From positions 46,029 to 110,028 of the forward strand of contig CAVRCA010000009.1 of NCBI GenBank assembly GCA_963719345.1: a stretch of 64,000 nucleotides of DNA, written 5' to 3'. This DNA is from an uncultured Alphaproteobacteria bacterium. GTDB taxonomy: Bacteria > Pseudomonadota > Alphaproteobacteria > Acetobacterales > Acetobacteraceae. The position numbers were made by a program, and so were the translations under genes. The notes below the pieces were generated by a model that was not told where the DNA came from, ran no database searches, and saw only the letters and a list, made by a program, of their open reading frames with translations. The stretch's first letter is position 1; every line of letters begins with the position of its first letter. Of the stretch, positions 1 to 42,105 are shown piece by piece.

Positions 1-256
1 GGCGTCGCGGTGGAGATCAACTTCCCACACACCTAGACGCGCGCCCTGTGGGGGGCGGCTGCGGCCGGTGAGCACGGCGGCAAGGAGCCAGCACCGCAAG
101 CAAGCGGGATGCTCGGTCCCGCACCCTTGCACCGTCGCGAGCCGCCGGGAGTAACGCCCCGGCGCCGCTGGGCGGGGCGGTCGCATCGGCCCCGCCCGCC
201 TTCTCCCTCGCCGCCTTCCGCTCTACTGTGCCGCCTGAAGAGCGAGGGGGGAGACA

Positions 257-1058
257 ATGCTGGATCTGGCCGGCAAGGTGGCCATCGTTTCGGGCGCGGG
301 TTCGGTGGGACCGGGCTGGGGCAACGGCCGCGCGACCGCGACCTTGTTCGCACGGCAGGGTGCGAAAGTGTTCCTGCTCGACATCAACCGCGAGGCGCTC
401 GACGAGACGCGCCGGATCATCGAGGAGGAAGGCAACACCTGCGAAACGCGGATCTCCGACGCCCTCGAATTCGGCGCAGGTCAAAGAGTCGATGGACGCC
501 TGCTTGGCCCGGTTCGGGCGCATCGACATCCTGGTGAACAACGTCGGCGGCTCCGCGCCCGGCGGGCCGGTCGAGATGTCGGAGGAGGTGTTCGACCGGC
601 AAATCGATCAGAACCTGAAAACCGCGTTTCTCGGCTGCAAGCACGTGCTGCCCGTCATGGAGAAGCAAGGCAAGGGAGCGATCGTCAACATCGCTTCCGT
701 TGCCGGCCTGCGCGACCATCTCGGCCGCACCCATGTCGGCTACAGCGCGAGCAAGGCCGGTGTGATCCAGCTCTCGCGCTCGACGGCGGTGAAATACGCG
801 CCGCTCGGCATCCGCGTGAACACCGTGGTTCCCGGGCTGATGAACACGCCCCTGGTGACGCATCGGCTGGCGCGCCAGATCGGCAACAACGACGCCGAGG
901 CACTGATCGCCGACCGCCACCGGCGCGTGCCGATGGGCCATATGGGCGATGGTTGGGACGTCGCGCACGCCGTGCTGTTCCTCGCTTCCGACGAGGCCCG
1001 CTTCATCACCGCGACCGAGATCATCGTCGATGGCGGCATGATCGCGACAATTCCATAA
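257..1058 (+). pseudogene. SDR family oxidoreductase, split by one frameshift (possible consensus error)
   Basis: The N-terminal Rossmann motif VAIVSGAGSVGPGWG lies in the frame of ORF 257. The rest (RIDILVNNVGG, catalytic YSASK, IVDGGMIATIP) lies in the frame of ORF 228. The frames join at the ccc run 462-464; removing one C gives DASNSAQVKESMD. Confidence 0.85.
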
Positions 1059-1075
1059 GGTAGGGAGACGAACAG

Positions 1076-1633
1076 ATGACCGAACGCTTTGGCCCGATCT
1101 CGCCGGAGACGATGACCGCCGAGCAGAAGCGCGTGGCGGAGACCATCGCCGGTGGACCGCGCGGCAGCTGGCAGCGTGGGCCGTTCAAGGCGTTGCTGCG
1201 CAGCCCGGAGATCGCCAACCGCATCCAGCACGTCGGCGAATACGTGCGCTTCAAGAGCTCGATCGAACCGCGGCTGAACGAGCTTGCCATTATCCTGTGC
1301 GCGCGCAAATGGACCGCGCAGTACGAATGGTACGCGCACCGCAAGCTGGCCCTGGAGGCGGGGTTGCGGCCGGAGATCGCCGACGCCGTTGCGGAGGGAA
1401 GGCGCCCGGACAACCTGCAGCCAGATGAAGCAACGGTGTACGATTTCGCGCACCAGCTCCTGCACACCGGGCAGGTGAGTGACGCGGCGTTCAATGCCGT
1501 CAAGGAAAAGTTCGGCGAGAACGGCGTGATCGATCTGATCGGTGCCGTCGGCTACTACACGATCGTTTCATTCGTTCTCAACGTCGACCGCGTTCCCCTG
1601 CCGGCCGACGCCACGCCGCTCAAGCCGCTCTGA
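1076..1633 (+). CDS. Carboxymuconolactone decarboxylase (AhpD-like) family protein
   Basis: 185-aa ORF. The pattern RSPEIANRIQHVGEYVRF...ELAIILCARKWTAQYEWYAH is typical of the CMD family. It sits 18 bp after the preceding gene. Confidence 0.7.
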   Translation: MTERFGPISPETMTAEQKRVAETIAGGPRGSWQRGPFKALLRSPEIANRIQHVGEYVRFKSSIEPRLNELAIILCARKWTAQYEWYAHRKLALEAGLRPEIADAVAEGRRPDNLQPDEATVYDFAHQLLHTGQVSDAAFNAVKEKFGENGVIDLIGAVGYYTIVSFVLNVDRVPLPADATPLKPL

Positions 1634-1645
1634 CGGGGAACGATC

Positions 1646-2141
1646 ATGCAAGACCTTCTGCCGATCGCCCAACGCATCGGCGCACGCCTGAAGGAGCGCG
1701 GCGAGACCGTGGCGGTGTTCGAGTTCCTCGACCGGCGGCCTGGTCTCGGCGGCGCTGCTTTCCGTGCCGGGAGCCTCGGCCTACTTCCTTGGCGGCGGCG
1801 TGATCTATACCCGCAAGGCGCGGGACGAGATCGCCGGCATTGACGACGCTGCGATGTCCGCAATGCGCGCGTCCACCGAGCCGTATGCGCGATTGCTCGC
1901 GCAACGGGCGCGGGCCAAGCTCGGGGCGACCTGGGGTGTGGGCGAAAGCGGCGCCACCGGACCGACCGGCAATCGTTACGGCGACGCCGCCGGGCATACC
2001 TGCTTCGCCATCGCCGGTCCGGCCGAAGCGGCGACGACGCTTGAAACCGGCAGCGACGACCGGGTGGCCAACATGCGCCGGTTCGCCAATGACGTGCTGG
2101 GGGCCCTCGAGCAGGCTCTTGGGGCGACTGGCCGCTCCTGA
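1646..2141 (+). pseudogene. CinA-family (PncC-like nicotinamide-nucleotide amidohydrolase domain) protein, one frameshift
   Basis: The N-terminus MQDLLPIAQRIGARLKERGETVAV is in the frame of ORF 1646. The remainder, SSSTGGLVSAALLSVPGASAYFLGGGVIYT...GESGATGPTGNRYGDAAGHTCFAI, is in the frame of ORF 1764. The shift is at gagttcc (about 1724), apparently one extra t. Confidence 0.8.
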
Positions 2142-3829
2142 CCTCGACCTATCGGGAGTTGCCGCCGCATACTTTCTCCAGCGGCCTGTGCCGGCGGCGC
2201 TCCGTCCAGCCGAACGCGCCAGATCGTGCGGTCATGGACCTGGCTGGCAGAGCAGGGCGTCGCGCGCATCACCGAGATCAAGGCCGTATAGAATGGGTGC
2301 GTCAAACCCGTCTGGCCCATTGCGGGTGCTGAGACTGAGCGAGTTGAACGGGATACCTCGTACCTGCCAGGGTACGTATCGCGGAGTTCATCCTCCCCTC
2401 GTATCAGCACCAGTGCCGGGGCGGGCGCGGTCGCCGCCACGCGCAGCGGCTCGCGAACGGCCGAGACCTGGAGATGCGCGAAGACCGAGTAGCTGAGCAC
2501 GAACCCGGCGTAGGCAGCGACCTGCAGGCCGGCCAGGCGCATCGGATCGAATCGCCAGCGGCCGAGCGCCCAAGGCACATTGCTGCCGAAGGCCCTCCCG
2601 AGGGTGAGCGGCACCGTCACCCAGCCGATGAACCAGTAGCGCGGGCCATACTGGTAACCGCCGAGGTCGGGGTAGAACAAAAAGAACAGGATGGTTGCCG
2701 GCAGCATCAGGTCGAACCAGCGCAGGGTCCGCTGCCGCACGCCGCGCCAGAGCGCGACGGCCACGAACGGCAGCAGCGCGGCGCAGGCAAACTCCATCCA
2801 CCATGACGATTGCCAAACCGTGCGCTCGAGCGCGCGGAAAGGGTTGCTCGGCCCTTCGATGCCGTGCCCATAAAGCCCGTAGGTGAGGTCGGGAAAGCCC
2901 CAGGAGAGGGTTGTGACGAACGGGCTGCCGGTGATGCGCCAGTTATACCAGGCAAACATCGCGACCACCGGCAGGGCGCCGAGTGCCGCCCACAGGGAGC
3001 GCCGGACGAACACCCGTCGCCGCCGTAGCAGCCCGTCGAGAACATAGAGCCCGAAGGCGAGAAGGAACGCTTCGTAGCGCGTGGTCAGCAGCACGGAAAA
3101 GGCGAAGCCGAGGGCGAGCTGAGCCCAGACCGTTGGCCGCCGCTCATCGCGTAGGCCGAGCCAGGCGACGGCAAGAATGCACGTTCCCGTCAAGGTGTGG
3201 TTGAAGAACGAGGCGTTGTTGAACAGCGTGAACGGCGCTAGGAGCGAGAGCGCCAACAACGCCCCGCCCCGCCCGCGTGTCACCCCGAGTTGCCGCAAAC
3301 CGAGGGCCAGGAACGCCGCCAAAAGAACTCCCAGCACGGGATTGGCTGCGGTCCGCAACCCGACCGAGGCAAACAAGGCGAGCACTGCTGGCCAGCCCGG
3401 CGGGTATTGCGACAGCCGCTTGCCGTCCTGGTCGGGCACGTACATCGTCTTGAGCACGTCGCCGAGCCCGGACGGCGCGGACGCGTTCCACAGTCGGCCG
3501 TGGCGCAATGTGTCGGCGAGGAAGTTATAGCCGTATTCGTCCGCCGAGACCGGATACGCTTGTAGCACGACATCGGCGAGCAGCAGCGGCACGACGAAGG
3601 CCAGCGCAAGTGTTGCTGCGGCGGCAAGGCCGGCGCCCGGGCGTTCCCGTTCCGGCACCGTGGTGCGCGCGCCCCATAGCACCAGCGCCGCGGCGCACAA
3701 CCCATAGAGCAGGTCCACCGCGACCGTCATCCCCTTGCCAGGATGCCAGAGTTCGGCCACCCCGGCGCCCAGGCCGAGCAGGAACAACACCGCCGCCAGC
3801 AGCGTCAGGAAGGAACGGGTTCGGACCAT
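1976..3829 (-). CDS. GT-C fold (ArnT/PMT-like) integral-membrane glycosyltransferase, tandem copy 1; 3' end scrambled
   Basis: Many hydrophobic segments. An acidic first-loop motif YPVSADEYGYNFLADTL follows TM1. Positions 2416-3829 align in phase with copy 2 at a +1812 offset. The last roughly 90 codons are homologous to copies 2/3 only across three different frames, and the ORF reads on into the 3' end of the cinA-like gene. Confidence 0.6.
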   Translation of the reverse strand: MVRTRSFLTLLAAVLFLLGLGAGVAELWHPGKGMTVAVDLLYGLCAAALVLWGARTTVPERERPGAGLAAAATLALAFVVPLLLADVVLQAYPVSADEYGYNFLADTLRHGRLWNASAPSGLGDVLKTMYVPDQDGKRLSQYPPGWPAVLALFASVGLRTAANPVLGVLLAAFLALGLRQLGVTRGRGGALLALSLLAPFTLFNNASFFNHTLTGTCILAVAWLGLRDERRPTVWAQLALGFAFSVLLTTRYEAFLLAFGLYVLDGLLRRRRVFVRRSLWAALGALPVVAMFAWYNWRITGSPFVTTLSWGFPDLTYGLYGHGIEGPSNPFRALERTVWQSSWWMEFACAALLPFVAVALWRGVRQRTLRWFDLMLPATILFFLFYPDLGGYQYGPRYWFIGWVTVPLTLGRAFGSNVPWALGRWRFDPMRLAGLQVAAYAGFVLSYSVFAHLQVSAVREPLRVAATAPAPALVLIRGEDELRDTYPGRYEVSRSTRSVSAPAMGQTGLTHPFYTALISVMRATPCSASQVHDRTIWRVRLDGAPPAQAAGESMRRQLPIGRGQERPVAPRACSRAPSTSLANRRMLATRSSLPVSSVVAASAGPAMAKQVCPAASP

Positions 3830-3952
3830 GGCGCCCTTGTAAGTGTTTGAGGCGACGCGCCGTCAAGCAATTAGGCTCTTGCAGCGTCCTCAACTGTGCG
3901 GTCCGGACATGGCGGCCGCTCAAGAAGCAGGCCCACACGCCCTTCCTGGTGG

Positions 3953-5641
3953 TCAGCCATGCTGATGGACCGCCGCCTGGGGTGTCCCGCACGCTGGCTC
4001 CAGCGTAGCTTTTGGGGGCGCTCCTTGCACACGGACGCGCCAGATCGTCCGGTCGTGGACCTGCCGGCAGAGCAGGGCGATGCGCGCCTCACCGAGATCG
4101 ATACCGTGTAGGATGGGACCAGTAAAACCATCCGGGCCGTTGCGGGTGGTATCTACCGCGTCGAAGTGGATTGGTCGGCTCTGCCAGGAGACGTATCGGA
4201 TTTCATCGCTGGCGATCAGCACCAGCGCCGGGGCGGGCGCGGTCGCCGCCGCGCGCAGCGGCTCGCGAACGGCCGAGACCTGGAGATGCGCGAAGACCGA
4301 GTAGCTGAGCACGAACCCGGCGTAGGCGGCGACCTGCAGGCCGGCCAGGCGCATCGGATCGAATCGCCAGCGGCCGAGCGCCCAAGGCACATTGCTGCGG
4401 AAGGCCCTCCCGAGGGTGAGCGGCACCGTCACCCAGCCGATGAACCAGTAGCGCGGGCCATACTGGTAACCGCCGGCGTCGGGATAGAACACGAAGAACA
4501 GGACGGTTGCCGGCAGCATCAGGTCGAACCAGCGCAGGGTTCGCTGCCGCACGCCGCGCCAGAGCGCGACGGCCACGAACGGGAGCAGCGCGGCGCAGGC
4601 AAACTCCATCCACCATGACGATTGCCAAACCGTGCGCTCGAGCGCGCGGAAAGGGTTGCTCGGCCCTTCGATGCCGTGCCCATAAAGCCCGTAGGTGAGG
4701 TCGGGAAAGCCCCAGGAGAGGGTGGTGACGAACGGGCTGCCGGTGATGCGCCAGTTATACCAGGCAAACATCGCGACCACCGGCAGGGCGCCGAGTGCCG
4801 CCCACAGGGAGCGCCGGACAAACACCCGTCGCCGCCGTAGCAGCCCGTCGAGAACATAGAGCCCGAAGGCGAGAAGGAACGCTTCGTAGCGCGTGGTCAG
4901 CAGCACGGAAAAGGCGAAGCCGAGGGCGAGCTGAGCCCAGACCGTTGGCCGCCGCTCATCGCGTAGGCCGAGCCAGGCGACGGCAAGAATGCACGTTCCC
5001 GTCAAGGTGTGGTTGAAGAACGAGGCGTTGTTGAACAGTGTGAACGGCGCTAGGAGCGAGAGCGCCAACAACGCCCCGCCCCGCCCGCGTGTCACCCCGA
5101 GTTGCCGCAAACCGAGGGCCAGGAACGCCGCCAAAAGAACTCCCAGCACGGGATTGGCTGCGGTCCGCAACCCGACCGAGGCAAACAAGGCGAGCACTGC
5201 TGGCCAGCCCGGCGGGTATTGCGACAGCCGCTTGCCGTCCAGGTCGGGCACGTACATTGTCTTGAGCACGTCGCCGAGCCCGGACGGCGCGGACGCGTTC
5301 CACAGTCGGCCGTGGCGCAATGTGTCGGCGAGGAAGTTATAGCCGTATTCGTCCGCCGAGACCGGATACGCTTGTAGCACGACATCGGCGAGCAGCAGCG
5401 GCACGACGAAGGCCAGCGCAAGTGTTGCTGCGGCGGCAAGGCCGGCGCCCGGGCGTTCCCGTTCCGGCACCGTGGTGCGCGCGCCCCATAGCACCAGCGC
5501 CGCGGCGCACAACCCATAGAGCAGGTCCACCGCGACCGTCATCCCCTTGCCAGGATGCCAGAGTTCGGCCACCCCGGCGCCCAGACCGAGCAGGAACAAC
5601 ACCGCCGCCAGCAGCGTCAGGAAGGAACGGGTTCGGACCAT
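3953..5641 (-). CDS. GT-C fold membrane glycosyltransferase, tandem copy 2 (chimeric: 5' part like copy 1, 3' part like copy 3)
   Basis: 562-aa ORF with ATG at 5641. The N-terminus MVRTRSFLTLLAAVLF is identical to copy 1. The C-terminal domain ASDEIRYVSWQSRPIHFDAV...AAVHQHG is identical to copy 3. Confidence 0.7.
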   Translation of the reverse strand: MVRTRSFLTLLAAVLFLLGLGAGVAELWHPGKGMTVAVDLLYGLCAAALVLWGARTTVPERERPGAGLAAAATLALAFVVPLLLADVVLQAYPVSADEYGYNFLADTLRHGRLWNASAPSGLGDVLKTMYVPDLDGKRLSQYPPGWPAVLALFASVGLRTAANPVLGVLLAAFLALGLRQLGVTRGRGGALLALSLLAPFTLFNNASFFNHTLTGTCILAVAWLGLRDERRPTVWAQLALGFAFSVLLTTRYEAFLLAFGLYVLDGLLRRRRVFVRRSLWAALGALPVVAMFAWYNWRITGSPFVTTLSWGFPDLTYGLYGHGIEGPSNPFRALERTVWQSSWWMEFACAALLPFVAVALWRGVRQRTLRWFDLMLPATVLFFVFYPDAGGYQYGPRYWFIGWVTVPLTLGRAFRSNVPWALGRWRFDPMRLAGLQVAAYAGFVLSYSVFAHLQVSAVREPLRAAATAPAPALVLIASDEIRYVSWQSRPIHFDAVDTTRNGPDGFTGPILHGIDLGEARIALLCRQVHDRTIWRVRVQGAPPKATLEPACGTPQAAVHQHG

Positions 5642-5764
5642 GGCGCCCTTGTAAGTGTTTGAGGCGACGCGCCGTCAAGCAATTAGGCTCTTGCAGCGTC
5701 CTCAACTGTGCGGTCCGGACATGGCGGCCGCTCAAGAAGCAGGCCCACACGCCCTTCCTGGTGG

Positions 5765-7453
5765 TCAGCCATGCTGATGGACCGCCGCCTGGGGTGTCCC
5801 GCACGCTGGCTCCAGCGTAGCTTTTGGGGGCGCTCCTTGCACACGGACGCGCCAGATCGTCCGGTCGTGGACCTGCCGGCAGAGCAGGGCGATGCGCGCC
5901 TCACCGAGATCGATACCGTGTAGGATGGGACCAGTAAAACCATCCGGGCCGTTGCGGGTGGTATCTACCGCGTCGAAGTGGATTGGTCGGCTCTGCCAGG
6001 AGACGTATCGGATTTCATCGCTGGCGATCAGCACCAGCGCCGGGGCGGGCGCGGTCGCCGCCGCGCGCAGCGGCTCGCGAACGGCCGAGACCTGGAGATG
6101 CGCGAAGACCGAGTAGCTGAGCACGAACCCGGCGTAGGCGGCGACCTGCAGGCCGGCCAGGCGCATCGGATCGAATTGCCAGCGGCCGAGCGCCCAAGGC
6201 ACATTGCTGCGGAAGGCCCTCCCGAGGGTGAGCGGCACAGTCACCCAGCCGATGAACCAGTAGCGCGGGCCATACTGGTAACCGCCGAGATCGGGGTACG
6301 CGAAAAAGAACAGGATGGTTGCCGGCAGCATCAGGTCGAACCAGCGCAGGGTCCGCTGCCGCACGCCGCGCCAGAGCGCGACGGCCACGAACGGCAGCAC
6401 CGCAACGCAGGCGAACTCCATCCACCACAGCGAGAACCAGACCGTGCGTTCCAAGGAGCGGAAAGGAGTGTTCGGTCCCTCGGTGCCGTACCCATAAAGC
6501 CCGTAGGTGAGGTCAGGAAAGCCCCAGGAGAGGGTTGTGACGAACGGGCTGCCGGTGATGCGCCAGTTATACCAGGCAAACATCGCGACCACCGGCAGGG
6601 CGCCGAGTGCCGCCCACAGGGAGCGCCGGACAAACACCCGTCGCCGCCGTAGCAGCCCGTCGAGAACATAGAGCCCGAAGGCGAGAAGGAACGCTTCGTA
6701 GCGCGTGGTCAGCAGCACGGAAAAGGCGAAGCCGAGGGCGAGCTGAGCCCAGACCGTTGGCCGCCGCTCATCGCGTAGGCCGAGCCAGGCGACGGCAAGA
6801 ATGCACGTTCCCGTCAAGGTGTGGTTGAAGAACGAGGCGTTGTTGAACAGTGTGAACGGCGCTAGGAGCGAGAGCGCCAACAACGCCCCGCCTCGCCCGC
6901 GTGTCACCCCGAGTTGCCGCAAACCGAGGGCCAGGAACGCCGCCAAAAGAACTCCCAGCACGGGATTGGCTGCGGTCCGCAACCCGACCGAGGCAAACAA
7001 GGCGAGCACTGCTGGCCAGCCCGGCGGGTATTGCGACAGCCGCTTGCCGTCCAGGTCGGGCACGTACATTGTCTTGAGCACGTCGCCGAGCCCGGACGGC
7101 GCGGACGCGTTCCACAGTCGGCCGTGGCGCAATGTGTCGGCGAGGAAGTTATAGCCGTATTCGTCCGCCGAGACTGGATACGCTTGTAGCACGACATCGG
7201 CGAGCAGCAGCGGCACGACGAAGGCCAGCGCAAGTGTTGCTGCGGCGGCAAGGCCGGCGCCCGGGCGTTCCCGTTCCGGCACCGTGGTGCGCGCGCCCCA
7301 TAGCACCAGCGCCGCGGCGCACAACCCATAGAGCAGGTCCACCGCGACCGTCATCCCCTTGCCAGGATGCCAGAGTTCGGCCACCCCGGCGCCCAGACCG
7401 AGCAGGAACAACGCTGCAGCGAGGCAGACCGGAAAGAAACGAATTCGTATCAT
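5765..7453 (-). CDS. GT-C fold membrane glycosyltransferase, tandem copy 3
   Basis: The ORF is tracked to 7519, but the ATG at 7453 (MIRIRFFPVCLAAALF) is exactly 1812 bp from the copy 2 start. This copy has a unique N-terminus and a divergent patch YGYGTEGPNTPFRSLERTVWFSLWW. Confidence 0.7.
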   Translation of the reverse strand: MIRIRFFPVCLAAALFLLGLGAGVAELWHPGKGMTVAVDLLYGLCAAALVLWGARTTVPERERPGAGLAAAATLALAFVVPLLLADVVLQAYPVSADEYGYNFLADTLRHGRLWNASAPSGLGDVLKTMYVPDLDGKRLSQYPPGWPAVLALFASVGLRTAANPVLGVLLAAFLALGLRQLGVTRGRGGALLALSLLAPFTLFNNASFFNHTLTGTCILAVAWLGLRDERRPTVWAQLALGFAFSVLLTTRYEAFLLAFGLYVLDGLLRRRRVFVRRSLWAALGALPVVAMFAWYNWRITGSPFVTTLSWGFPDLTYGLYGYGTEGPNTPFRSLERTVWFSLWWMEFACVAVLPFVAVALWRGVRQRTLRWFDLMLPATILFFFAYPDLGGYQYGPRYWFIGWVTVPLTLGRAFRSNVPWALGRWQFDPMRLAGLQVAAYAGFVLSYSVFAHLQVSAVREPLRAAATAPAPALVLIASDEIRYVSWQSRPIHFDAVDTTRNGPDGFTGPILHGIDLGEARIALLCRQVHDRTIWRVRVQGAPPKATLEPACGTPQAAVHQHG

Positions 7454-7624
7454 GCTGGTTTGATAAAGAAATGCTTGGGAGGCGCTCGTCAAGCCACAGA
7501 TTTGAGCGAAGCGCTCCATTCTGCGTGAGATGAAGGCAGGACAAGAGCCGAATCGTTCACTACAATCTCACGTGGAGCGATAAATCCCTTGGACTGCGCC
7601 ACTGGGATCGGGCAGAACCTCGCC

Positions 7625-8701
7625 ATGACCCCAGGTGCCGATCTAAGTCCGCCCATTCAGGAAAACCGTGCGGACCACGCACAGGCTGATGCTCCCCTGT
7701 TGCGATCCGAAGCCGCACGCCGCGTTGCGCAGACCGGCCCATCGGTGATGCCTCTCGGCAGGATCGCGGTCCTTATCCCGTGCTATAATGAAGAGGTCGC
7801 AATCGGCCATGTGGTCGCCGATTTCCGCGCCGCCCTGCCGCAGGCGACGATCCACGTCTACGACAACAATTCCACTGACGACACAGCCGCCTCCGCGCGT
7901 GCGGCGGGAGCGATCGTGCGGCGCGAGACCTTGCAGGGAAAAGGTCACGTGGTCCGGCGCATGTTCGCCGACGTGGAAGCCGACGTCTATGTCCTGGTCG
8001 ATGGCGACAACACGTACGATGCGAGCGTAAGCCCGGCCATGGTGCATACGCTAGTTGCCGACCAGCTCGACATGGTGACCGGCACGCGAGTGACCGACAT
8101 CGCCGCGGCCTACCGCCCAGGCCACCGGTTCGGCAACGCAATGTTGACCGGCATCGTCGGCTGGGTGTTCGGCAACCGCATCACCGACATGCTTTCGGGT
8201 TATCGTGCCTTCTCCCGCCGGTTCGTAAAGTCGTTTCCCGCCCTCGCGACCGGCTTCGAGACGGAGACCGAGTTCACCGTTCACGCGCTCGAGCTCAAAA
8301 TGCCGATCGGCGAGGTCAAGACTAGTTACCGGGATAGGCCGGTCGGCTCGGCGTCGAAACTGCACACGGTGCGCGACGGCGTCCGCATCCTGCGCACCAT
8401 CGTGATCCTGGTTAAGGAGGAGCGCCCGCTCCAATTCTTTTCCCTGACGGGACTGGTGCTGGCGCTGCTGGCACTCGCGATCGGCGTGCCGGTCATCGTC
8501 GAGTTCCTGCACAGCGGCTTGGTGCCGCGGCTGCCGACCGCCGTGCTTGCCGCGAGCCTGACGTTGCTTTGTTTCCTGTCGATCGCCTGTGGACTGATCC
8601 TCGATTCGGTGTCCCGCGGCCGCAAGGAGATCAAGCGGCTTGCATACCTCGCCATTCCGGCGGCCGGAGCAAGCTCGACTTCCGGTGCTCCCCCGGTCTG
8701 A
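7625..8701 (+). CDS. GT2 family glycosyltransferase with C-terminal TM helices (polyprenyl-phosphate sugar synthase-like: DPM1/ArnC/GtrB type)
   Basis: Motifs: IAVLIPCYNEE, VYDNNSTDDT, and DGD in VLVDGDNTYD. The C-terminus has two hydrophobic helices (FFSLTGLVLALLALAIGV..., LAASLTLLCFLSIACGLIL). The start is uncertain: TTG 7589, ATG 7625 or ATG 7748. Confidence 0.8.
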   Translation: MTPGADLSPPIQENRADHAQADAPLLRSEAARRVAQTGPSVMPLGRIAVLIPCYNEEVAIGHVVADFRAALPQATIHVYDNNSTDDTAASARAAGAIVRRETLQGKGHVVRRMFADVEADVYVLVDGDNTYDASVSPAMVHTLVADQLDMVTGTRVTDIAAAYRPGHRFGNAMLTGIVGWVFGNRITDMLSGYRAFSRRFVKSFPALATGFETETEFTVHALELKMPIGEVKTSYRDRPVGSASKLHTVRDGVRILRTIVILVKEERPLQFFSLTGLVLALLALAIGVPVIVEFLHSGLVPRLPTAVLAASLTLLCFLSIACGLILDSVSRGRKEIKRLAYLAIPAAGASSTSGAPPV

Positions 8702-8709
8702 CGGAATAC

Positions 8710-9498
8710 TCAGCGGCTCGGATGCGGCTGGTCTGCCATTAGCCGGGAAAGTGTCGGTTCGATCACGCCGGCCAGCCTCTCCTGCGCCTGCGCGGTGGGA
8801 TGCAGCGGCGGCTCCGGGGGAGTGAGCAGCGGGTCGAAATAGAGGCTCCGGTCAAGTCGGCCATTCCGCATGAACAGGGACGTCACATCAAAAAACGTCG
8901 GGTCCCCACCAGAAGGGTAGCGCGAAGCGAGCGCGCGGTTGATCGCCACCGTGGTGTCGCTGGCCCAAGCCGACCGCTCGCTCGGCAGCACGCTCAACAA
9001 CAGCAGCTTGGTTTGCGGCAGACGGCGGTGCAACTCGTCGATGTTGGCGGCAATACCGGTGGTGGTGGCCTCGGCTGACCAGTGCACCCGACCGAGATTG
9101 TTGGCGCCGATCAGGACGACCGCGACCTTGGGCGCGATGCCGTCCACCTCGCCGTTGCGGATGCGCCATAACAGGTTGGCCGTCGTGTCGCCCTTGAAGC
9201 CGAGATTGACCGCGTTGCGATCGCCATAGAAGCGGTTCCACCCGGGTCTGAAATCCGCCCAGTCCGGGGGACCGACGCGCTCCCAGTCCTCGGTGATCGA
9301 GTCGCCGAGGAAGATCAGGTCGACCCTGCCTTGGCGCAGCCGTTCGAGCGCGGCGAGGTGCCGGGCGCGCCACCAGGGAAGGTCGAGGCGCGAGATCGGG
9401 GTAGCGGCGAGCGGCTCGTGCGAGTGGGTGCTCGGCGCGGCGGCAAGGAGCGGGAGCGCTGCGGCGAGCGTCAGTGCGAGGCGGCGCAGGCTTGTCAC
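8710..9498 (-). CDS. Secreted SGNH/GDSL-type hydrolase (PAF-acetylhydrolase-like esterase)
   Basis: Signal peptide MTSLRRLALTLAAALPLLAAAP. Block I is FLGDSITE, followed by GFKGDTT and GANN. The GTG start overlaps the stop of the upstream CoA-transferase gene (GTGA). Confidence 0.8.
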   Translation of the reverse strand: MTSLRRLALTLAAALPLLAAAPSTHSHEPLAATPISRLDLPWWRARHLAALERLRQGRVDLIFLGDSITEDWERVGPPDWADFRPGWNRFYGDRNAVNLGFKGDTTANLLWRIRNGEVDGIAPKVAVVLIGANNLGRVHWSAEATTTGIAANIDELHRRLPQTKLLLLSVLPSERSAWASDTTVAINRALASRYPSGGDPTFFDVTSLFMRNGRLDRSLYFDPLLTPPEPPLHPTAQAQERLAGVIEPTLSRLMADQPHPSR

Positions 9499-10682
9499 GC
9501 TCCCGTAATCTCGGCGATCTCCGCCTCACCATAGCCGGCTTCTCGCAGCACCTCCGTCGTGTGCTCGCCGAGGCCGGGCGGCAGGCGACGGATCGAGGGC
9601 GGCGAGGCGGAGAAGGCGGCCGGAACCGCGGTCAGGACCGTGCGGCCGTTGGTCGGGTGATCGACTTCCTGGAAAAAGCCGGTTTCGCGCAAATAGGGAT
9701 TGTCCAGCAACTCCGGCAGGGTGCCGGCCTCGCCACAGGGGATATCGGCTCGCTGCAGGATGTCCAGCCACTCGGCGGTGGTGCGAGACTGCATCCCTTC
9801 CGTCAGCACGGCATAGACGGCGTCCACGTTCTCCGTGCGCGCGCCGATGCTGGCGAAGCGCGAATCCTCGATCAGCTCGGGGCGGCCGATCGCCGCGAAG
9901 ATGCGCGCCCACTGGATGTCGCTCACGGCAATGACCGAGACGTACCCATCCCTGGTCCGATAGGGCCGGCGATGTGGCGTCAGCATCCTGGGGTAGCCCA
10001 TGCCCCGTTCGGGCTCGCCGATCGCCGCACCCCAGAGGTGCTCGACCAGCATGAAGTTCAGCATCGTCTCCATCATCGGCACATGCACTTCCTGGCCCTC
10101 GCCGGTGCGCTCCCGGTGGAACAGAGCCATGCCGATCATCGAGGCCAGCATGTGTCCGCTCACCTTGTCGGCGGCGACGGTCGGAAAGTAGCGCGGCGCG
10201 CCATCCGGCCCGGCGTTCAGCGAGGCCGTGCCGCTGAGCCCCTGGATCAGATCGTCATAGGCCGGGCTGTCCTGCAGCGAGCTGCCTTTGCGAAACCCGC
10301 TCGCGCAGGCCAGGATGACGCGCCGGTTCTGCGCGGCGAGGCTGGCGTAGTCGAGCCCGAGCCGCTCGGCGGCACCCAGCCGCATGTTGTGCACCACGAC
10401 GTCCGCCGCCGCGATCAGCCGGTCCAGCGCCGCGCGGGCCGGCTTGCGCTTGAGGTCAAGCACGATGCTGCGCTTGTTGCGGTTCAGTGCGACGAAGTAG
10501 GCGCCCATGTCCGGGGCGCGCGAAGGGCCGATATGCCGGCAATTGTCGCCGGCCGGGGTCTCCACCTTGATCACGTCGGCGCCCATGTCGCCGAGGATCT
10601 GGGTCGCGAACGGGCCAAGCACCACGGTCGTCAAATCGACGACGCGGATACCGGCGAGCGGGCCGCGGTTTTCGTCCGTCAT
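9495..10682 (-). CDS. CoA-transferase family III (CaiB/BaiF-like)
   Basis: GIRVVDLTTVVLGPFATQILGDMGADVIKVE is characteristic. Start chosen at MTDENRG (10682) so the gene does not overlap uppP; the tracked ORF extends to 10742. Confidence 0.85.
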   Translation of the reverse strand: MTDENRGPLAGIRVVDLTTVVLGPFATQILGDMGADVIKVETPAGDNCRHIGPSRAPDMGAYFVALNRNKRSIVLDLKRKPARAALDRLIAAADVVVHNMRLGAAERLGLDYASLAAQNRRVILACASGFRKGSSLQDSPAYDDLIQGLSGTASLNAGPDGAPRYFPTVAADKVSGHMLASMIGMALFHRERTGEGQEVHVPMMETMLNFMLVEHLWGAAIGEPERGMGYPRMLTPHRRPYRTRDGYVSVIAVSDIQWARIFAAIGRPELIEDSRFASIGARTENVDAVYAVLTEGMQSRTTAEWLDILQRADIPCGEAGTLPELLDNPYLRETGFFQEVDHPTNGRTVLTAVPAAFSASPPSIRRLPPGLGEHTTEVLREAGYGEAEIAEITGA

Positions 10683-10707
10683 CGGGCGGCTTTCCGAACC
10701 GTGTGGG

Positions 10708-11547
10708 TCACGCGACGAGATACAGCACGGCCAGGCTGCCAAGGCCGAACACGATGCAGTAGTAGGCGAACGGGTTCAGCGCCCAGGCATCATTGGTGCG
10801 GAAGTAGCGCATCAGGAAGGCGGTGCTCGCGAACGCGGTCACGCCGGCCAGGATCGCGGCGACGACGGAGAGCTGGAGCACGCCCGGCGCGATGTCCTCG
10901 TGCAGCAGCTTGGGCAGTTCCAGTACGGTCGCGCCGAGGATGACCGGCGTGGCGATCAGGAACGAGAAATGGGCGGCGCCCTCATGCCCGACGCCACGCA
11001 GCAGCCCGCCGACGATGGTGGCGCCGGAGCGGGAAATGCCGGGGATCAGCGCGAGGCATTGCCAGCAGCCGATTATCAGTGCGTCGATGGCGGTGAGGCT
11101 GGACAGCGGCCGGCTGCGTGCCGCGCCGCGCAGCCGCTCACCGAACAGCAGCATCGCGCCGTTCACGACCAGGAACACCGCCGCGACCACGGGCGAGCCG
11201 AACAGCGTGCGCAGGAATTTTTCAAGCAGGAAGCCGACGATCACGGCGGGAATGGTCGCGAGGACCACGAGCACGAACACCCTCCGGCTCTCCTTGACCT
11301 TGTGGGGGGAGCCGATGCCGAGCACGCCCGAAAGCAGCGCCCACCAGTCTTTCCAGAAATAGAGCAGCAGGGCGGCGGCGGTGCCGAGGTGGAGGGTGAC
11401 CAGGAAAGGCAGGAAGGCGGCCGAACGCTGATCGATGCTCCAGCCGAGCAGCGGCGGTAGGACGACGGCATGGCCGAGGCTGCTGACCGGGAACAGCTCG
11501 GTCGCCCCCTGCAGGATGGCGATGACGATCGCTTGCAGCGTCGTCAT
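10708..11547 (-). CDS. uppP: Undecaprenyl-diphosphate phosphatase
   Basis: 279 aa, polytopic. N-terminal motif ILQGATELFPVSSLGH, and ISRSGATI later in the protein. Confidence 0.9.
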   Translation of the reverse strand: MTTLQAIVIAILQGATELFPVSSLGHAVVLPPLLGWSIDQRSAAFLPFLVTLHLGTAAALLLYFWKDWWALLSGVLGIGSPHKVKESRRVFVLVVLATIPAVIVGFLLEKFLRTLFGSPVVAAVFLVVNGAMLLFGERLRGAARSRPLSSLTAIDALIIGCWQCLALIPGISRSGATIVGGLLRGVGHEGAAHFSFLIATPVILGATVLELPKLLHEDIAPGVLQLSVVAAILAGVTAFASTAFLMRYFRTNDAWALNPFAYYCIVFGLGSLAVLYLVA

Positions 11548-11727
11548 GGCGCGCGGGCCTCGCAGCCGAGCGCTGCCGCCGGCGTTCGGTGCATCGCCAT
11601 TCGACGTATTCCCTTGGGTCCGGATTCCGCTGACCGCGTTGCCGCGGCCTGGTGTTCCTGGCCGAAAGCTTCGTCCATTGCAACCCGAACGCGACCGGCG
11701 GACAGCACCAGGCGGGAGGCCGGCGCG

Positions 11728-12828
11728 TCAGTCGTTCATGGGGTAGGACGCCATGAGCTGGCGCTGCCGACGCCACAGCCGGAACATCTCGGTGAGGCCG
11801 CACGGCCGGTAGCCGCGGGCCCGATTAGCCGCCCCGATGCGCCACGCCCAGCCGTAATGCACGAACTGGGCGCGCCACGCCGCCCGGAGCGTAGTGGCGG
11901 GGTCCCAGACGTGGGTCGCCTCCGACCCGGCGCCGTTGATCTCGATAATGCGAAACCCCTCGCCGCGGCGGAATGCGGCCAGCGATTCGAAGCGGACGTC
12001 GAACCGCCCGAAGTGGAATTCGGGCATAGCACGGGCGATCCGCTCGATGGCCTCGGTCAGCGCCGGGGTCGCCTCGCGCGTCGCGTCCTCGAACAGCGAC
12101 CCTTTGCAGTGATTGCCGACGAAGACGAGCCGGACCCGCTCGCCCTGGGCGGGAACGTCCGCCAGCCGAGCTGCCAGGCGCGGCAGATAAAGATGCGGGA
12201 CCAGGCCGGCGCGTGGGTCGGCCAACACGAGCTGCTGCAAGGTGGAACGGCCATCCCCGATCACGTAGGGCGCGTGCTTGAACGTGATCGAGGTGATCCG
12301 ACCCTGCGCCCGCCCAGGCTGGCGCACGTAGAAGATGCCGGCCTCGCCTTCCTCCGGTGCGAACGCCTGCAGCATGAGCCGGCAGCCGCCGGGGAACTCG
12401 CGGAGGTAGCGCGCCAGTCCGGCTTGGTCCTCGATCAGCCGAACGCCGGTCCCGTTGCAGCCGATGTCGGGCTTGGCGACCACCGGCCAGTCGATCGCCG
12501 CAGCGCGCAGCTGCCGCTCCGCCTGCGCGAGCGCCTGCTCCGGAGTACCGGTCACTTCGAGGCTCGTGTAGGGAACCAGCCGGGAGCGTTCGCCCACGCC
12601 GACCTGATCGAGGATCGATATTTTCGACTCGCCGCACAGGCCGCCGGCGGTGATCCGCGGGTTGGCCGCCGTCGGCAGGCTCATGTCGCCGTAACGCAGC
12701 CCGAGCGCGATCCACTGCACGACGATCGGGGTGTAGAACATCCAGGACGGCCAGAACTCGAAATGCGAGACAGGCTTGTCCTGCGCGACCGCCGGCTGGG
12801 CGGTGCCGAGCGCCGTTTCGACCGTCAT
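11728..12828 (-). CDS. ATP-grasp domain protein (carboxylate-amine ligase-like) with a hydrophobic N-terminal segment
   Basis: WPVVAKPDIGCNGTGVRLI and FRIIEINGAGSEATHVWD match ATP-grasp nucleotide-binding strands. The N-terminus FWPSWMFYTPIVVQWIALGL is hydrophobic. Confidence 0.65.
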   Translation of the reverse strand: MTVETALGTAQPAVAQDKPVSHFEFWPSWMFYTPIVVQWIALGLRYGDMSLPTAANPRITAGGLCGESKISILDQVGVGERSRLVPYTSLEVTGTPEQALAQAERQLRAAAIDWPVVAKPDIGCNGTGVRLIEDQAGLARYLREFPGGCRLMLQAFAPEEGEAGIFYVRQPGRAQGRITSITFKHAPYVIGDGRSTLQQLVLADPRAGLVPHLYLPRLAARLADVPAQGERVRLVFVGNHCKGSLFEDATREATPALTEAIERIARAMPEFHFGRFDVRFESLAAFRRGEGFRIIEINGAGSEATHVWDPATTLRAAWRAQFVHYGWAWRIGAANRARGYRPCGLTEMFRLWRRQRQLMASYPMND

Positions 12829-12889
12829 GCCGGCCCCGTCGGCGAGGCGTCCGCTTCCGGGCCGCTCCGTGGGCCGTTCGCCGGGCCGC

Positions 12890-13468
12890 TCACTGAGGGG
12901 CGCCCTGCAGTCGGGTGGCGACCCGGCCGACGACGAAGAGGGTCACCGCGAACCCGGCCGCACCCGCCCAGCGCCAGGCGCCGAAATGATCGATGAGCAC
13001 CTGACCGATCCGGAGCGAAACCGCGAACAGCAGGGTGGTCCAGACCAGGGTCGCCGCGATTGCCGCCAAGGTGAACTGCCGGAAGTCGGCCCGCAGGAAG
13101 CCGCAGGCCGTGTAGGCGGGCAGCCGCATGCCCGGCAGGAACCGGCTGATCAGCACGACCCGAAACACGCGGCCCCGCACCCACTCGCCGAGCGCGCGCG
13201 AGCGCTCGGGCGGGACCAGCCGGGCGATCCAGCCGATACGGCTCGACAGGCGGCCGAGACCGTAAAGCCCCAGATCACCGAGCACGACGCCCGCATAGAG
13301 CGCGACCAGCGCCACCCAAACGGCGATGCCGCCCTCGTCGGCCCGCATGGCGGCGAGCACCGTCGCGGCGTCCTCCAGGACGAATGTGCCAAGGATGATC
13401 GCCACTGCCTGGGCAAGGGGACTCGTGCCGGCCAGCTTGAGGAGGATGACGAGGGAGTTGCCGACCAT
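12890..13468 (-). CDS. DedA/VTT-domain family membrane protein
   Basis: 192 aa with several TM segments. LEDAATVLAAM...GDLGLYGLGR...ISRFLPGMRLPAY resembles the VTT/SNARE-associated core. Confidence 0.65.
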   Translation of the reverse strand: MVGNSLVILLKLAGTSPLAQAVAIILGTFVLEDAATVLAAMRADEGGIAVWVALVALYAGVVLGDLGLYGLGRLSSRIGWIARLVPPERSRALGEWVRGRVFRVVLISRFLPGMRLPAYTACGFLRADFRQFTLAAIAATLVWTTLLFAVSLRIGQVLIDHFGAWRWAGAAGFAVTLFVVGRVATRLQGAPQ

Positions 13469-13634
13469 TCCGCCCGGACGAAGTGAGATCGCGTTACAAG
13501 GCTCTCCCGAGACCGGGGTTCGGCCGGAAGACGATCAGCACCCTGTGATAGCCTCGCCGGGTTTGACCGCGCAAGAGGCCGCCATTTAAGCTGAAATCGC
13601 TCCGCGGATCGGGGCGCAGGGGGCAAGAGCGCGG

Positions 13635-14579
13635 ATGAGCGGGCACCACCACGCCCTCGGCCACGACCATGCCGGCCCGTCGCACGGCGACCACCATCAC
13701 GGCCCCGGTTCGTACGACCGCGCGTTCGCGGTTGGGGTGTTTCTGAACGCGGCGTTCGTCGTGGCCGAGATCGGGTTCGGCCTGGCCGCCAATTCGGTCG
13801 TTCTGGTCGCCGACGCCGCGCACAATCTGGGCGATGTGCTCGGGTTGCTGCTCGCTTGGGGGGCGAGCTGGCTGGCGCGTCGGCCGCCCACGCCACGGCG
13901 GACCTATGGCTGGGGCCGCAGCTCGATCCTTGCCGCGCTGGTGAACTCGGTGGTGTTGCTGGTCAGCGTCGGCGCCATCGCCTTCGAGGCCGCGCGTCGC
14001 CTCTTCCATCCCGAGCCGGTCGGCGAACTTACCGTGACCGGCGTCGCGGCGGCCGGCATCGTCGTCAATGGCGTCACGGCTTGGCTTTTCATGCGCGGGC
14101 GCAAGGACGACCTCAACATCCGCGCGGCGTTCCTGCATCTAGCCGGCGATGCGGCGGTCTCCGCCGGCGTGGTACTCACCGGTCTGCTGATCGCGCTCAC
14201 CGGCTGGTTCTGGCTCGACCCGCTGGCGAGCCTCGCCATCGCGGCGGTGATCCTGCTCAGCACCTGGGGCGTGCTGCGCGATGCCGCCGATATGGCGATG
14301 GACGCGGTGCCCGGCGGGGTCAGGCCCGAGGCGGTCGAGGACTACCTGCGGCGACTGCCGGGCATCGTCGAGGTGCATGACCTGCACATCTGGGCCTTGA
14401 GCACCACCGAGACGGCGCTGACGGCCCATCTCGTCTCCGTGCGCGAACGGGATCGCGACAGCCTGAGCGGGATTGCGGCCGAAATCCGCCAGCGCTTCCG
14501 CATCGGACACACGACCTTTCAGGTCGAGACCATCGCGGATGCGGAAGCTTGCGAACTGCGCCCGCACCACGTCGTGTAA
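13635..14579 (+). CDS. czcD: Cation diffusion facilitator family Zn/Co/Cd efflux transporter
   Basis: His-rich N-terminus HHHALGHDHAGPSHGDHHH. Also LVADAAHNLGDV, HLAGDAAVS, and a C-terminal cytoplasmic domain containing VHDLHIWALS. Confidence 0.9.
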   Translation: MSGHHHALGHDHAGPSHGDHHHGPGSYDRAFAVGVFLNAAFVVAEIGFGLAANSVVLVADAAHNLGDVLGLLLAWGASWLARRPPTPRRTYGWGRSSILAALVNSVVLLVSVGAIAFEAARRLFHPEPVGELTVTGVAAAGIVVNGVTAWLFMRGRKDDLNIRAAFLHLAGDAAVSAGVVLTGLLIALTGWFWLDPLASLAIAAVILLSTWGVLRDAADMAMDAVPGGVRPEAVEDYLRRLPGIVEVHDLHIWALSTTETALTAHLVSVRERDRDSLSGIAAEIRQRFRIGHTTFQVETIADAEACELRPHHVV

Positions 14580-14605
14580 TCACCGCGAGAGTTGGGACAC
14601 CAGCC

Positions 14606-15358
14606 ATGGACCTGCAACTCGGCGATAAAACCGCTTTGGTGACCGGGGCCAGCATGGGCATCGGCCGGGCCATCGCGCGGGGTCTCGCCGCCGAGGGCGT
14701 GCGGGTCGCCGCAGTCGCGCGGCGCGAGGAGCTGCTGCGCACCCTCGCCGCGGAGATCGAGGCGGCCGGCGGGCCGGCCCCGGCGCTGATCGCCCAAGAC
14801 ATCATGGACGAGCACGCGGTGGCACGACTGCGAGAGGCCGCACAGGCGGCACTGGGCCAGGTCGACATCCTGGTCAACTGCGCCGGCGGCAGCCGCGTGC
14901 TGCCGGTCGACGCCCCCGAGGAGCGGTGGACCGAGGCAATGACCCTCAACTTCACCCGCCAGCGGCAGATCGCGCACGCGCTGCTGCCCGGCATGATCGA
15001 GCGGCGCTGGGGTCGCATTATCAACATCACCGGCAAGTCCGAGCCGGAACACCTCAACGCCGCCTTCGCCGCCAAGGCCGCCATGCACGCCTGGGCGAAG
15101 GGCCTGTCGCGCGAGGTGGGCCAGCACGGGATTACGGTCAACTCCATCCCGCCCGGGCGGATAATGAGTGAGCAGATCCGCCGCAACTACCCCGAGGACT
15201 ATCGTCGCGCCTTCGCCGAAGCCGAGATTCCGGTGCGCTATTGGGGCGAGCCGGAGGACTTGGCCGTGCTGGCGGTCTTCTTGGCCTCGCCCCTTGCCCG
15301 CTATATCACCGGGGCCGTCATTCCAGTCGACGGCGGCTTGCGGCGCTACCAGTTTTGA
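14606..15358 (+). CDS. SDR family protein with atypical active-site motif
   Basis: ALVTGASMGIGRAIA and ILVNCAGG are present. Where YxxxK is expected the sequence reads NAAFAAKAA. The ATG at 14606 follows the czcD stop. Confidence 0.8.
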   Translation: MDLQLGDKTALVTGASMGIGRAIARGLAAEGVRVAAVARREELLRTLAAEIEAAGGPAPALIAQDIMDEHAVARLREAAQAALGQVDILVNCAGGSRVLPVDAPEERWTEAMTLNFTRQRQIAHALLPGMIERRWGRIINITGKSEPEHLNAAFAAKAAMHAWAKGLSREVGQHGITVNSIPPGRIMSEQIRRNYPEDYRRAFAEAEIPVRYWGEPEDLAVLAVFLASPLARYITGAVIPVDGGLRRYQF

Positions 15359-15437
15359 GGGTGCATCCCGTCTGGGCTTGCCGCGTTAGGTTGCAGTCGT
15401 GCTAGTTCACTGCTGACGATCAACTAGGGAGTTCGCT

Positions 15438-15590
15438 ATGCGGAAGCGTTTGGCTTTTGGCCTATCGATGCTGATGTTGCTGGGTGCCTCGTCCATGCTC
15501 GTGGGCTGCAACACCACCGCCGGGGCCGGCAAGGATCTCTCCAATACCGGCAAGGTCATCACCAACCAGGCGGACAAGAACAAGCCCTGA
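15438..15590 (+). CDS. Entericidin EcnA/B-like small lipoprotein (50 aa; not in the ORF track)
   Basis: Translation: MRKRLAFGLSMLMLLGASSMLVGCNTTAGAGKDLSNTGKVITNQADKNKP. Lipobox LVGC. An aggga Shine-Dalgarno sits 7 nt upstream of the ATG; the tga stop is at 15588-15590. Confidence 0.75.
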   Translation: MRKRLAFGLSMLMLLGASSMLVGCNTTAGAGKDLSNTGKVITNQADKNKP

Positions 15591-15671
15591 TCGCCGGCTC
15601 GGACTACCCGCCACGCCGTCGGCCTGACCGGCCGGGGCGCGGCGGGAACCCGACAACCTTTGGAGAGCACC

Positions 15672-30163: not shown

Positions 30164-30296
30164 TTTGATGCCTCCTTGGTGCTTGGTTGCTGGATGACCC
30201 TTCATCCAATGCACCGGTTATGGAGGCTTCCCGCTCCGCCAGTCGGTGACGCACGTCACACAGTTGCGGATTCTCGAATTTTCTTGGCGATCGTCC

Positions 30297-36640: not shown

Positions 36641-36658
36641 GCCGACATTCAAGGAAAG

Positions 36659-38048: not shown

Positions 38049-38050
38049 GC

Positions 38051-41151: not shown

Positions 41152-41169
41152 GGCTTTTTTGTCCCTGAC

Positions 41170-41971: not shown

Positions 41972-42105
41972 GTCGCCCGTCCGGTGCTCAGCCGGATCGG
42001 ACGCTAACAAGCGGGTTCCGCAGGGTCAAACCGCTGCGATTACGGGCGGCGGGGTGGCCGTCGCCGGGTGCTCTGGTATGATCCGGCAAGAAGGGTCCGG
42101 AAGTA

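Follow-up and report, generated by a model that had tools for sequence, protein, structure and literature searches.

This analysis concerns a tandem array of three genes for membrane proteins of putative GT-C glycosyltransferase type, located on contig CAVRCA010000009.1 (GenBank assembly GCA_963719345.1) of an uncultured alphaproteobacterium of the family Acetobacteraceae. The window, that is, the whole stretch of DNA analysed, comprises 64,000 nt, and all coordinates are counted from its first letter. Three open reading frames (ORFs) lie head-to-tail on the minus strand, at 1976..3829 (617 aa), 3953..5641 (562 aa) and 5765..7453 (562 aa, extendable to 7519). They are designated copy 1, copy 2 and copy 3, respectively, and their parts are listed here in the order of transcription; X and Y denote the two sequence types that can be told apart in the array.

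5765..7453, minus strand: copy 3 (type Y), 562 aa, intact; unique 5' end (MIRIRFFPVCL) and unique upstream region; identical to a database protein (P0001)
5642..5764, minus strand: spacer 2, 123 bp, between copies 3 and 2; identical to spacer 1; no terminator-like site
3953..5641, minus strand: copy 2 (chimera), 562 aa, intact; type X from nt 1 to about nt 1277, type Y from about nt 1314 to the stop codon
3830..3952, minus strand: spacer 1, 123 bp, between copies 2 and 1; identical to spacer 2
2149..3829, minus strand: copy 1 (type X), frame-corrected; the ORF as assembled spans 1976..3829 (617 aa) and has three indels in its C-terminal part

The initiating ATG codons, at 3829, 5641 and 7453, are separated by exactly 1812 nt, so that the array consists of three 1812-bp units in direct orientation. 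A preliminary description made from the sequence had pointed out this spacing as well as the matching 123-bp spacers. Both are borne out by a direct-repeat analysis and by the perfect identity (250/250 nt) of the segments upstream of the copy-1 and copy-2 ATGs, from which it follows that the two spacers are the same. Also present are all the peptides quoted in that description and its three marker residues, Q/L at aa 134, G/R at aa 415 and R/Q at aa 426. The region upstream of copy 3 is unrelated to those of the other copies (68/250 matches), and 17 sites in the first 41 nt of copy 3 differ from copies 1 and 2. Unique sequence flanks the array on both sides, and the array is not at the contig end. 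Tandem Repeats Finder did not report it, the longest period that it covers (500) being shorter than the unit. Scans for promoters and terminators performed no better than on shuffled sequences, with no terminator in either spacer; the RNA fold of the spacer is unremarkable (z -0.36), and tRNA and Rfam scans of the window came back empty.

A hybrid middle copy

Copy 2 is composed of two segments, each matching a different neighbour. Comparison with copy 3 gives 59 ungapped mismatches per unit, of which 17 are clustered in nt 1-41, most others fall in nt 939-1166 and none occurs after nt 1277. Comparison with copy 1 gives 18 mismatches before nt 1428, beyond which the two sequences diverge and indels appear. 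In the aligned coding sequences, copy 2 agrees with copy 1 at 50 sites and with copy 3 at 56, and carries a private base at 9. The best single breakpoint, with copy-1-like sequence on its left and copy-3-like sequence on its right, fits 100 of 106 informative sites, a value matched by none of 20000 permutations. The last site before the switch at which copy 2 follows copy 1 is nt 1277, and the continuous run of agreement with copy 3 starts at nt 1314. Downstream from the switch, the remainder of copy 2, the spacer and the beginning of copy 1 make up a 591-nt junction that is found a second time, without a single difference, between copies 3 and 2.

4329..4364, minus strand: X-to-Y switch interval in copy 2 (gene nt 1278-1313)
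3774..4364, minus strand: 591-nt junction (3' part of copy 2, spacer, first 56 nt of copy 1); identical to 5586-6176
5586..6176, minus strand: second copy of the 591-nt junction (3' part of copy 3, spacer, first 56 nt of copy 2); identical to 3774-4364

Along the direction of transcription the order is therefore Y (copy 3), X5'-Y3' hybrid (copy 2) and X (copy 1). Judged from its sequence, this is exactly the product expected of unequal crossing-over between the members of a Y-X pair. Such an origin had been proposed for the middle copy, and the single breakpoint and the duplicated junction uphold it. Two details call for amendment. The hybrid had been labelled Y5'-X3', a slip against the accompanying text, which correctly assigned the N-terminus of copy 2 to copy 1 and its C-terminus to copy 3. 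In addition, part of the difference seen in the C-terminal ~90 aa of copy 1 comes from an ORF that runs out of frame, as described below.

Uneven divergence and the history of the array

Differences among the copies are anything but evenly scattered, as the preliminary description had noted. The densest 120-nt window holds 24 of the 59 differences between copies 2 and 3, a concentration reached in 0 of 5000 permutations. Synonymous divergence (dS) between copies is as low as 0.012-0.024 over gene nt 43-936. Between copies 1/2 and copy 3 it rises to 1.4 in nt 1-42 and to 0.65 in nt 937-1056, where the ratio of nonsynonymous to synonymous divergence (dN/dS) is 0.22. In the 3' block, after nt 1427, it is copy 1 that departs from copies 2 and 3, with 80% identity and 45 gap columns. 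The internal patches are as follows.

6400..6515, minus strand: old-divergence island of copy 3, aa 313-352 (gene nt 939-1054); 24 differences from copies 1 and 2; predicted long periplasmic loop between transmembrane helices (TM) 9 and 10
2776-2891 and 4588-4703, minus strand: counterparts of the island in copies 1 and 2, homologous to 6400..6515 of copy 3
4476..4583, minus strand: micro-patch in which the three copies all differ (copy 2, gene nt 1059-1166); 8 of the 9 substitutions private to copy 2; flanks the motif YPD..GG.QYGPRYW

At the micro-patch the peptide reads FF[L/V/F][F/F/A]YPD[L/A/L]GG in copies 1, 2 and 3, respectively. Changes private to copy 2 are interleaved there, within a few nucleotides, with changes private to copy 3.

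How old the X and Y types might be can be judged from their C-terminal domains. Once its frame is corrected, the domain of copy 1 is 68% identical to that of copy 2, and the nearest outgroups are 53-63% identical to either. These values suggest that X and Y are sister paralogues whose separation goes back almost as far as the divergence from the closest known relatives. Near-identical tracts alternating with islands of high dS are, as far as sequence comparison can tell, what gene conversion (concerted evolution) leaves behind when some stretches escape it. The preliminary description had suspected gene conversion from three mosaic markers. The suspicion holds, on the grounds of the uneven X-Y divergence; the single markers are poor evidence by themselves since they might be private changes or consensus errors. 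The array resembles other cases of concerted evolution of tandem paralogues in the direct orientation of its units, the identical tracts with high-dS islands, the hybrid middle copy and the duplicated junctions. Heterogeneous divergence and a recombinant copy with a definable breakpoint and a duplicated junction are both found here. With regard to mechanism we see no difference, and the gene family is the only new element.

A history in four steps would account for this pattern. An old tandem duplication would have produced two paralogues, Y, represented today by copy 3, and X, represented by copy 1. Repeated gene conversion would then have homogenised most of the coding sequence, sparing the 5' end, the loop-coding patch, the micro-patch by the YPD motif and the whole C-terminal domain. 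More recently, X would have undergone an unequal crossover with Y within gene nt 1278-1313; this event would have generated the X5'-Y3' copy 2 and doubled the junction, in which the spacer joins the 3' end of Y to the 5' end of X. Finally, some additional short conversion or recombination events, perhaps involving another allele, or else consensus errors, have to be assumed because copies 1 and 2 differ at 15 sites even though the junction copies are identical, and because eight clustered changes private to copy 2 are without a donor.

We estimate at about 0.68 the probability that the locus is a three-copy array of GT-C genes shaped by an old duplication, gene conversion and a recent unequal crossover, and accompanied by a partner gene for a GT2 glycosyltransferase that makes the sugar donor (see below). 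A number of observations weigh against this reading. A recent crossover predicts that copies 1 and 2 be identical over nt 1-1277, yet there are 15 differences in nt 42-1277 and none in the 591-nt junctions (estimated P ~0.003). Eight of the nine changes private to copy 2 are crowded within 108 nt (4476-4583), and the window, where a fourth paralogue was sought as donor of this tract, contains none. Copy 1 as assembled may encode no functional C-terminal domain, and the frameshifts found in at least five other genes of the window cast doubt on the quality of the consensus. The dN/dS ratios are below 1 in both the main patch (0.22) and the micro-patch (no more than 0.38). Lastly, no member of the GtrA-like cluster (130 aa) is present in window positions 1-16000.

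The frameshifts in copy 1 result from three indels near the end of the gene.

2382..2386, minus strand: copy 1, indel site 1; CTCCG versus ATC in copy 2, +2 nt
2243..2246, minus strand: copy 1, indel site 2; CAGC versus CGG, +1 nt; frame 0 restored
2185..2191, minus strand: copy 1, indel site 3; GCACAGG versus AAAGCT, +1 nt; homologous stop codon lost

Between the first two sites, some 45 codons of the conserved C-terminal domain, including the family-invariant RNG motif, are out of frame. After the third, the TAG at 2149-2151 is missed and the ORF continues, antisense to the convergent CinA gene, to position 1976. In the corrected frame the protein reads RYVPWQ...TRNGPDG...LLC, then QVHDRTIWRV, then PLEKVCGGNSR and the stop. 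This corrected domain matches the family consensus as well as that of copy 2 does, its identity to outgroups being 53-63%, compared with 53-59% for the copy-2 domain. It follows that either the inactivation is very recent or the indels are errors. Frameshifts were also recognized in the five genes listed next, from successive parts of a single Pfam domain lying in different frames.

228-1063, plus strand: short-chain dehydrogenase/reductase (SDR), frameshifted as assembled
1634-2141, plus strand: CinA/PncC, frameshifted as assembled
~37.0 kb (36618-38744), minus strand: M20 peptidase, frameshifted as assembled
39.8-41.2 kb (39791-41169), minus strand: MmgE/PrpD, two frameshifts as assembled
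41.2-42.0 kb (40850-42025), minus strand: enoyl-CoA hydratase (ECH), frameshifted as assembled

The window thus appears to come either from an indel-prone assembly or from a pseudogene-rich genome, and with so many other genes affected, assembly indels in copy 1 are as likely as decay. Regarding copy 1 as an old pseudogene was considered and downgraded, given the conservation of the corrected frame and the frequency of frameshifts in the window.

These data bear on two alternative explanations. According to the first, the array is in decay: copy 1 would be a pseudogene whose 5' 1.4 kb has been refreshed by conversion, and the extra copies would be redundant and transient, as in a dosage amplification or a neutral duplication. 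This would explain why the last 250 nt of copy 1 contain three indels and a lost stop codon while the remaining 4.8 kb of the array is free of them, and it would suit dN/dS ratios below 1 and near-identity elsewhere, which give no sign of a new function. There is also a parallel among 67 related loci taken from genome assemblies, mostly metagenome-assembled genomes (MAGs) labelled Acetobacteraceae or Alphaproteobacteria. In a distant relative (locus L005, MAG MFD09603.bin.1.255), an independent tandem duplicate comprises a full gene (9926-11674) and a second copy (11800-12699) with 69% identity across its N-terminal 247 aa and an internal deletion, which indicates that tandem duplication recurs in the family and that an extra copy can decay. 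The reading is nonetheless rather unlikely: the corrected domain of copy 1 keeps both RNG and RYVPWQ and is as close to the outgroups as that of copy 2, and frameshifts are common elsewhere in the window.

According to the second explanation, the true genome would have one or two copies, and the third copy, or the fine mosaic, would be the product of noisy long reads or of a strain mixture over a repeat that is 97-99% identical. Besides the other frameshifted genes (SDR, CinA, M20 peptidase, PrpD twice, ECH), this explanation draws on the scattered single-site discordances, which are of the kind created by read mis-mapping in polishing. It also draws on the array sequence having been seen in one contig only: the proteins on record come from a single NCBI contig (118,328 bp), and their cluster holds only the three proteins of the window. 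Finally, the gene is single-copy in 66 of the 67 related loci. Such an artefact would, however, have to produce unique sequence on both sides of an array that is away from the contig end, and nine substitutions private to copy 2, which is not a mere blend of copies 1 and 3. A noisy expansion would hardly give exact 1812-bp units with two intact 562-aa ORFs, and the large blocks (5' end, patch and 3' domain) are too coherent for polishing noise. We therefore hold an assembly artefact to be quite improbable and take the array to be real as assembled, its mechanism being the standard one of tandem paralogues, gene conversion and unequal crossover.

A widespread protein family with the GT-C fold

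Assigning the three proteins to a family required structural comparison. An hmmscan search against Pfam-A returned no family at E<=0.01 for any copy, PF13231 and PF02366 included. The NCBIfam model NF047440 (LA_3751/LA_3752 putative glycosyltransferase) gave 39.2 and 35.3 bits (E 4e-10 and 6e-9), far from its cut-off of 200, over profile positions 73-343 of 460. To judge from these partial matches, the copies are distantly related to that family and do not belong to it. A sequence search of the PDB yielded only a chance match (E 0.7). A search for homologues collected 85 proteins, the nearest of them, other than the array proteins themselves, being 64% identical; PF13231 is carried only by the most distant (26-36% identity). 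A profile search of 1.84 billion representative sequences raised the number to 920 at E<=1e-30 and to 4534 at E<=1e-10, most of them full-length. The family is thus widespread and sizeable, uncharacterised and without a curated model, and it is centred on Acetobacteraceae-like Alphaproteobacteria. Positions invariant in an alignment of 43 sequences are D97-E98 (in SADEYGY), R251, T300-G301, D373, G395-P396-R397 and R500-N501.

A model of copy 2 was obtained with AlphaFold (AF2) from the family alignment (pLDDT 94.2, pTM 0.93) and compared with the PDB by Foldseek. All 23 matches at E<=1e-3 are GT-C enzymes, including Pmt4, ArnT (5ezm, TM-score 0.51), ALG12, ALG9, AglB, PglB, STT3, EmbA/B/C and AftB. 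A topology with 13 TM helices, the N-terminus inside and the C-terminus outside, agrees with the modelled helices as well as with the positive-inside rule. In this arrangement the DE motif follows TM3, within the first long loop on the periplasmic side, and the C-terminal domain is periplasmic too. Altogether, the predicted structure supports membership of the GT-C class at the fold level; the copies fall outside the curated ArnT/PMT sequence families. The GT-C label of the preliminary description stands in this form, on account of a fold search with only GT-C enzymes among its significant matches and of the DE motif in the first periplasmic loop. Support from Pfam is lacking. The class of enzyme is known, and it is this particular GT-C family that is uncharacterised.

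Among established members of the class, the ArnT (GT83)/PMT_2 group shares with the present proteins the fold (Foldseek probability 1.0 for ArnT), an acidic motif of the DE type in the first loop on the periplasmic side, a periplasmic domain at the C-terminus, about 13 TM helices and an internal N-terminus. In contrast to that group, the proteins of this locus have no Pfam match, are 10-17% identical to the solved GT-C enzymes and possess two additional N-terminal TM helices before the DE loop.

The related loci also contain a further gene of possible interest. In a Lichenicoccus sp. MAG (locus L006), an ORF of 489 aa with multiple TM helices and no Pfam match lies at 8456-9925, between the orthologue of the GT2 gene described below and the GT-C gene. 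It was considered as a member of the family and set aside for having no detectable homology; it may encode another membrane glycosyltransferase-like partner.

A GT2 neighbour and the proposed function of the array

Divergent from copy 3 is a gene for a second type of glycosyltransferase.

7589..8701, plus strand: GT2 glycosyltransferase with C-terminal TM helices; PF00535; AglJ/DPM/PpgS-like type

Its best NCBIfam matches, none of which reaches its cut-off, are AglJ (E 1e-60), dolichyl-phosphate hexose transferase and PpgS. An orthologue (60-74% identity) is found by tblastn beside the GT-C gene in about 14 of the related loci; in 20 of them, clustering of proteins puts a GT2 and the GT-C gene no more than 6 kb apart, in varying orientation. 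GtrA-like genes occur in 5 related loci and other polytopic proteins in a few. On the basis of fold and gene context, the GT2 protein is probably the donor-making partner of the GT-C enzyme, and the gene context, by analogy with known pairs, suggests that the GT-C enzyme uses a polyprenyl-phosphate-linked donor. At the cytoplasmic face of the membrane, the GT2 enzyme would load a sugar onto polyprenyl phosphate. Once the lipid has been flipped, this sugar would be passed by each GT-C isoenzyme to an acceptor in the periplasm; lipid A, the core of lipopolysaccharide (LPS) or another envelope glycoconjugate is the most plausible candidate. The copies may differ in acceptor preference or may simply be redundant. 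As for the acceptor, phosphate is missing from the lipid A of Acetobacter pasteurianus, its place at positions 1 and 4' being taken by glucuronic acid and mannose (PMC7956469). For the organism studied here, this chemistry offers a lead and nothing firmer.

The surroundings of the module comprise three other genes that deserve mention. The genes for UppP/BacA (undecaprenyl-diphosphate phosphatase; 10708-11547, minus strand) and a DedA/VTT protein (12890-13468, minus strand) lie at a distance of 2-5 kb from it, and both belong to families concerned with polyprenyl phosphate. UppP was sought beside the GT-C gene in the related loci, as a possible conserved partner, and was not found; no such search was made for DedA. 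The GT2 gene is followed immediately, on the other strand, by a gene for a secreted GDSL/SGNH hydrolase (8710-9498, minus strand), which could be an esterase or acyltransferase acting on an envelope glycan or lipid; one tblastn search of the related loci gave no match to it. The remaining neighbours are housekeeping genes. No mobile-element or prophage context and no genes of the aminoarabinose pathway were detected among the neighbouring genes scanned. Elsewhere in the window, a 39-nt tandem repeat (29809-30050, 6.2 copies, 87% matches) within an ORF at 29789-30214 (minus strand) encodes the 13-aa unit YR[TI]ASEQNGVGTS of a 141-aa protein.

As to whether the copies differ in function, the first 475 residues contain 24 amino-acid differences, 7 of them in the N-terminal helix. 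Outside this helix, 14 of 17 fall on the periplasmic side according to the topology model, namely at aa 134, at aa 322-352 (TM9-TM10 loop) and at aa 380-389 (periplasmic end of TM11, by YPD..GG.QYGPRYW). The idea that the variable patches might lie in periplasmic regions is accordingly confirmed for most of them in terms of predicted topology, and variation on this side fits differences on the acceptor side. It is conceivable that the copies are isoenzymes of differing acceptor or donor specificity and that selection protects the islands from conversion. The C-terminal domain, which also differs, is predicted to be periplasmic as well, and all three copies are distinct at the micro-patch. Precedents for one donor serving different acceptors exist in RgtA and RgtB, which act on 3-deoxy-D-manno-oct-2-ulosonic acid (Kdo) (PMC4402001), and in EmbA, EmbB and EmbC (PMC6053596). 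Against such diversification, dN/dS values of 0.22-0.38 leave positive selection on the patches unsupported. The main patch is poorly conserved across the whole family, and weak constraint would give the same picture. Moreover, the C-terminal domains of copies 2 and 3 are identical, and a single copy suffices in the relatives. On balance, selected diversification is a tentative reading, possible but on the unlikely side.

It is highly improbable that the array operates as a cassette system, in which a silent or defective copy and alleles not seen here would donate tracts into aa 313-352, aa 380-389 and the C-terminal domain, and only one or two copies may be expressed. Its only hints are the tract private to copy 2, for which there is no donor, and the differences between copies 1 and 2 as opposed to the identical junctions. 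If it were true, acceptor specificity and the pattern of surface sugars would switch at high frequency within a population.

Several known systems offer partial parallels to a GT-C array with a GT2 partner. In the ArnT/ArnC system, too, the partner GT2 resembles polyprenyl-phosphate sugar synthases; the present locus differs in having no aminoarabinose genes nearby. In Rhizobium leguminosarum, rgtA and rgtB are adjacent and their donor, polyprenyl-phosphate-galacturonic acid (GalA), is made by the GT2 enzyme RgtE. RgtA and RgtB are paralogous membrane glycosyltransferases that add GalA to the Kdo of the LPS inner core (PMC4402001). The likeness, by analogy, resides in the paralogous membrane glycosyltransferases and in the alphaproteobacterial host; unlike the copies described here, which are 96-99% identical with one of them chimeric, the Rgt paralogues are old and clearly diverged. 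The mycobacterial embC-embA-embB genes encode three paralogous GT-C enzymes, and Corynebacterium has a single emb (PMC6053596). They parallel the array in the number of paralogues, and Emb structures are among the fold matches. However, the matched structures show Emb proteins of about 1,050-1,090 residues, which serve actinobacterial cell-wall arabinan synthesis; the paralogues are anciently diverged and functionally distinct, with no recent recombinant copy reported (PMC6053596). In the three-component Gtr system (GtrA flippase, GtrB GT2 and a GtrC-type GT-C), the GT2 makes a lipid-linked monosaccharide and the polytopic GT-C transfers it in the periplasm. A GtrB-like GT2 adjoins the GT-C genes here as well, and GtrA-like genes are present in the five related loci mentioned above. 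In contrast, this locus has no GtrA-like gene within 16 kb, no prophage context and a GT-C of another family. A literature search turned up nothing relevant on tandem GT-C arrays with gene conversion.

In conclusion, the array provides a clean and datable example of concerted evolution and unequal crossover in a bacterial membrane enzyme, although the mechanism itself is textbook. For annotation it carries a warning, as copy 1 measures 617 aa only because of frameshifts. The GT-C family to which the array belongs, without a Pfam model and with 920 representative clusters at E<=1e-30, constitutes a defined target for envelope-glycan biochemistry in Acetobacteraceae-like bacteria, by virtue of its confident structural model, its invariant DE motif and its conserved GT2 partner.

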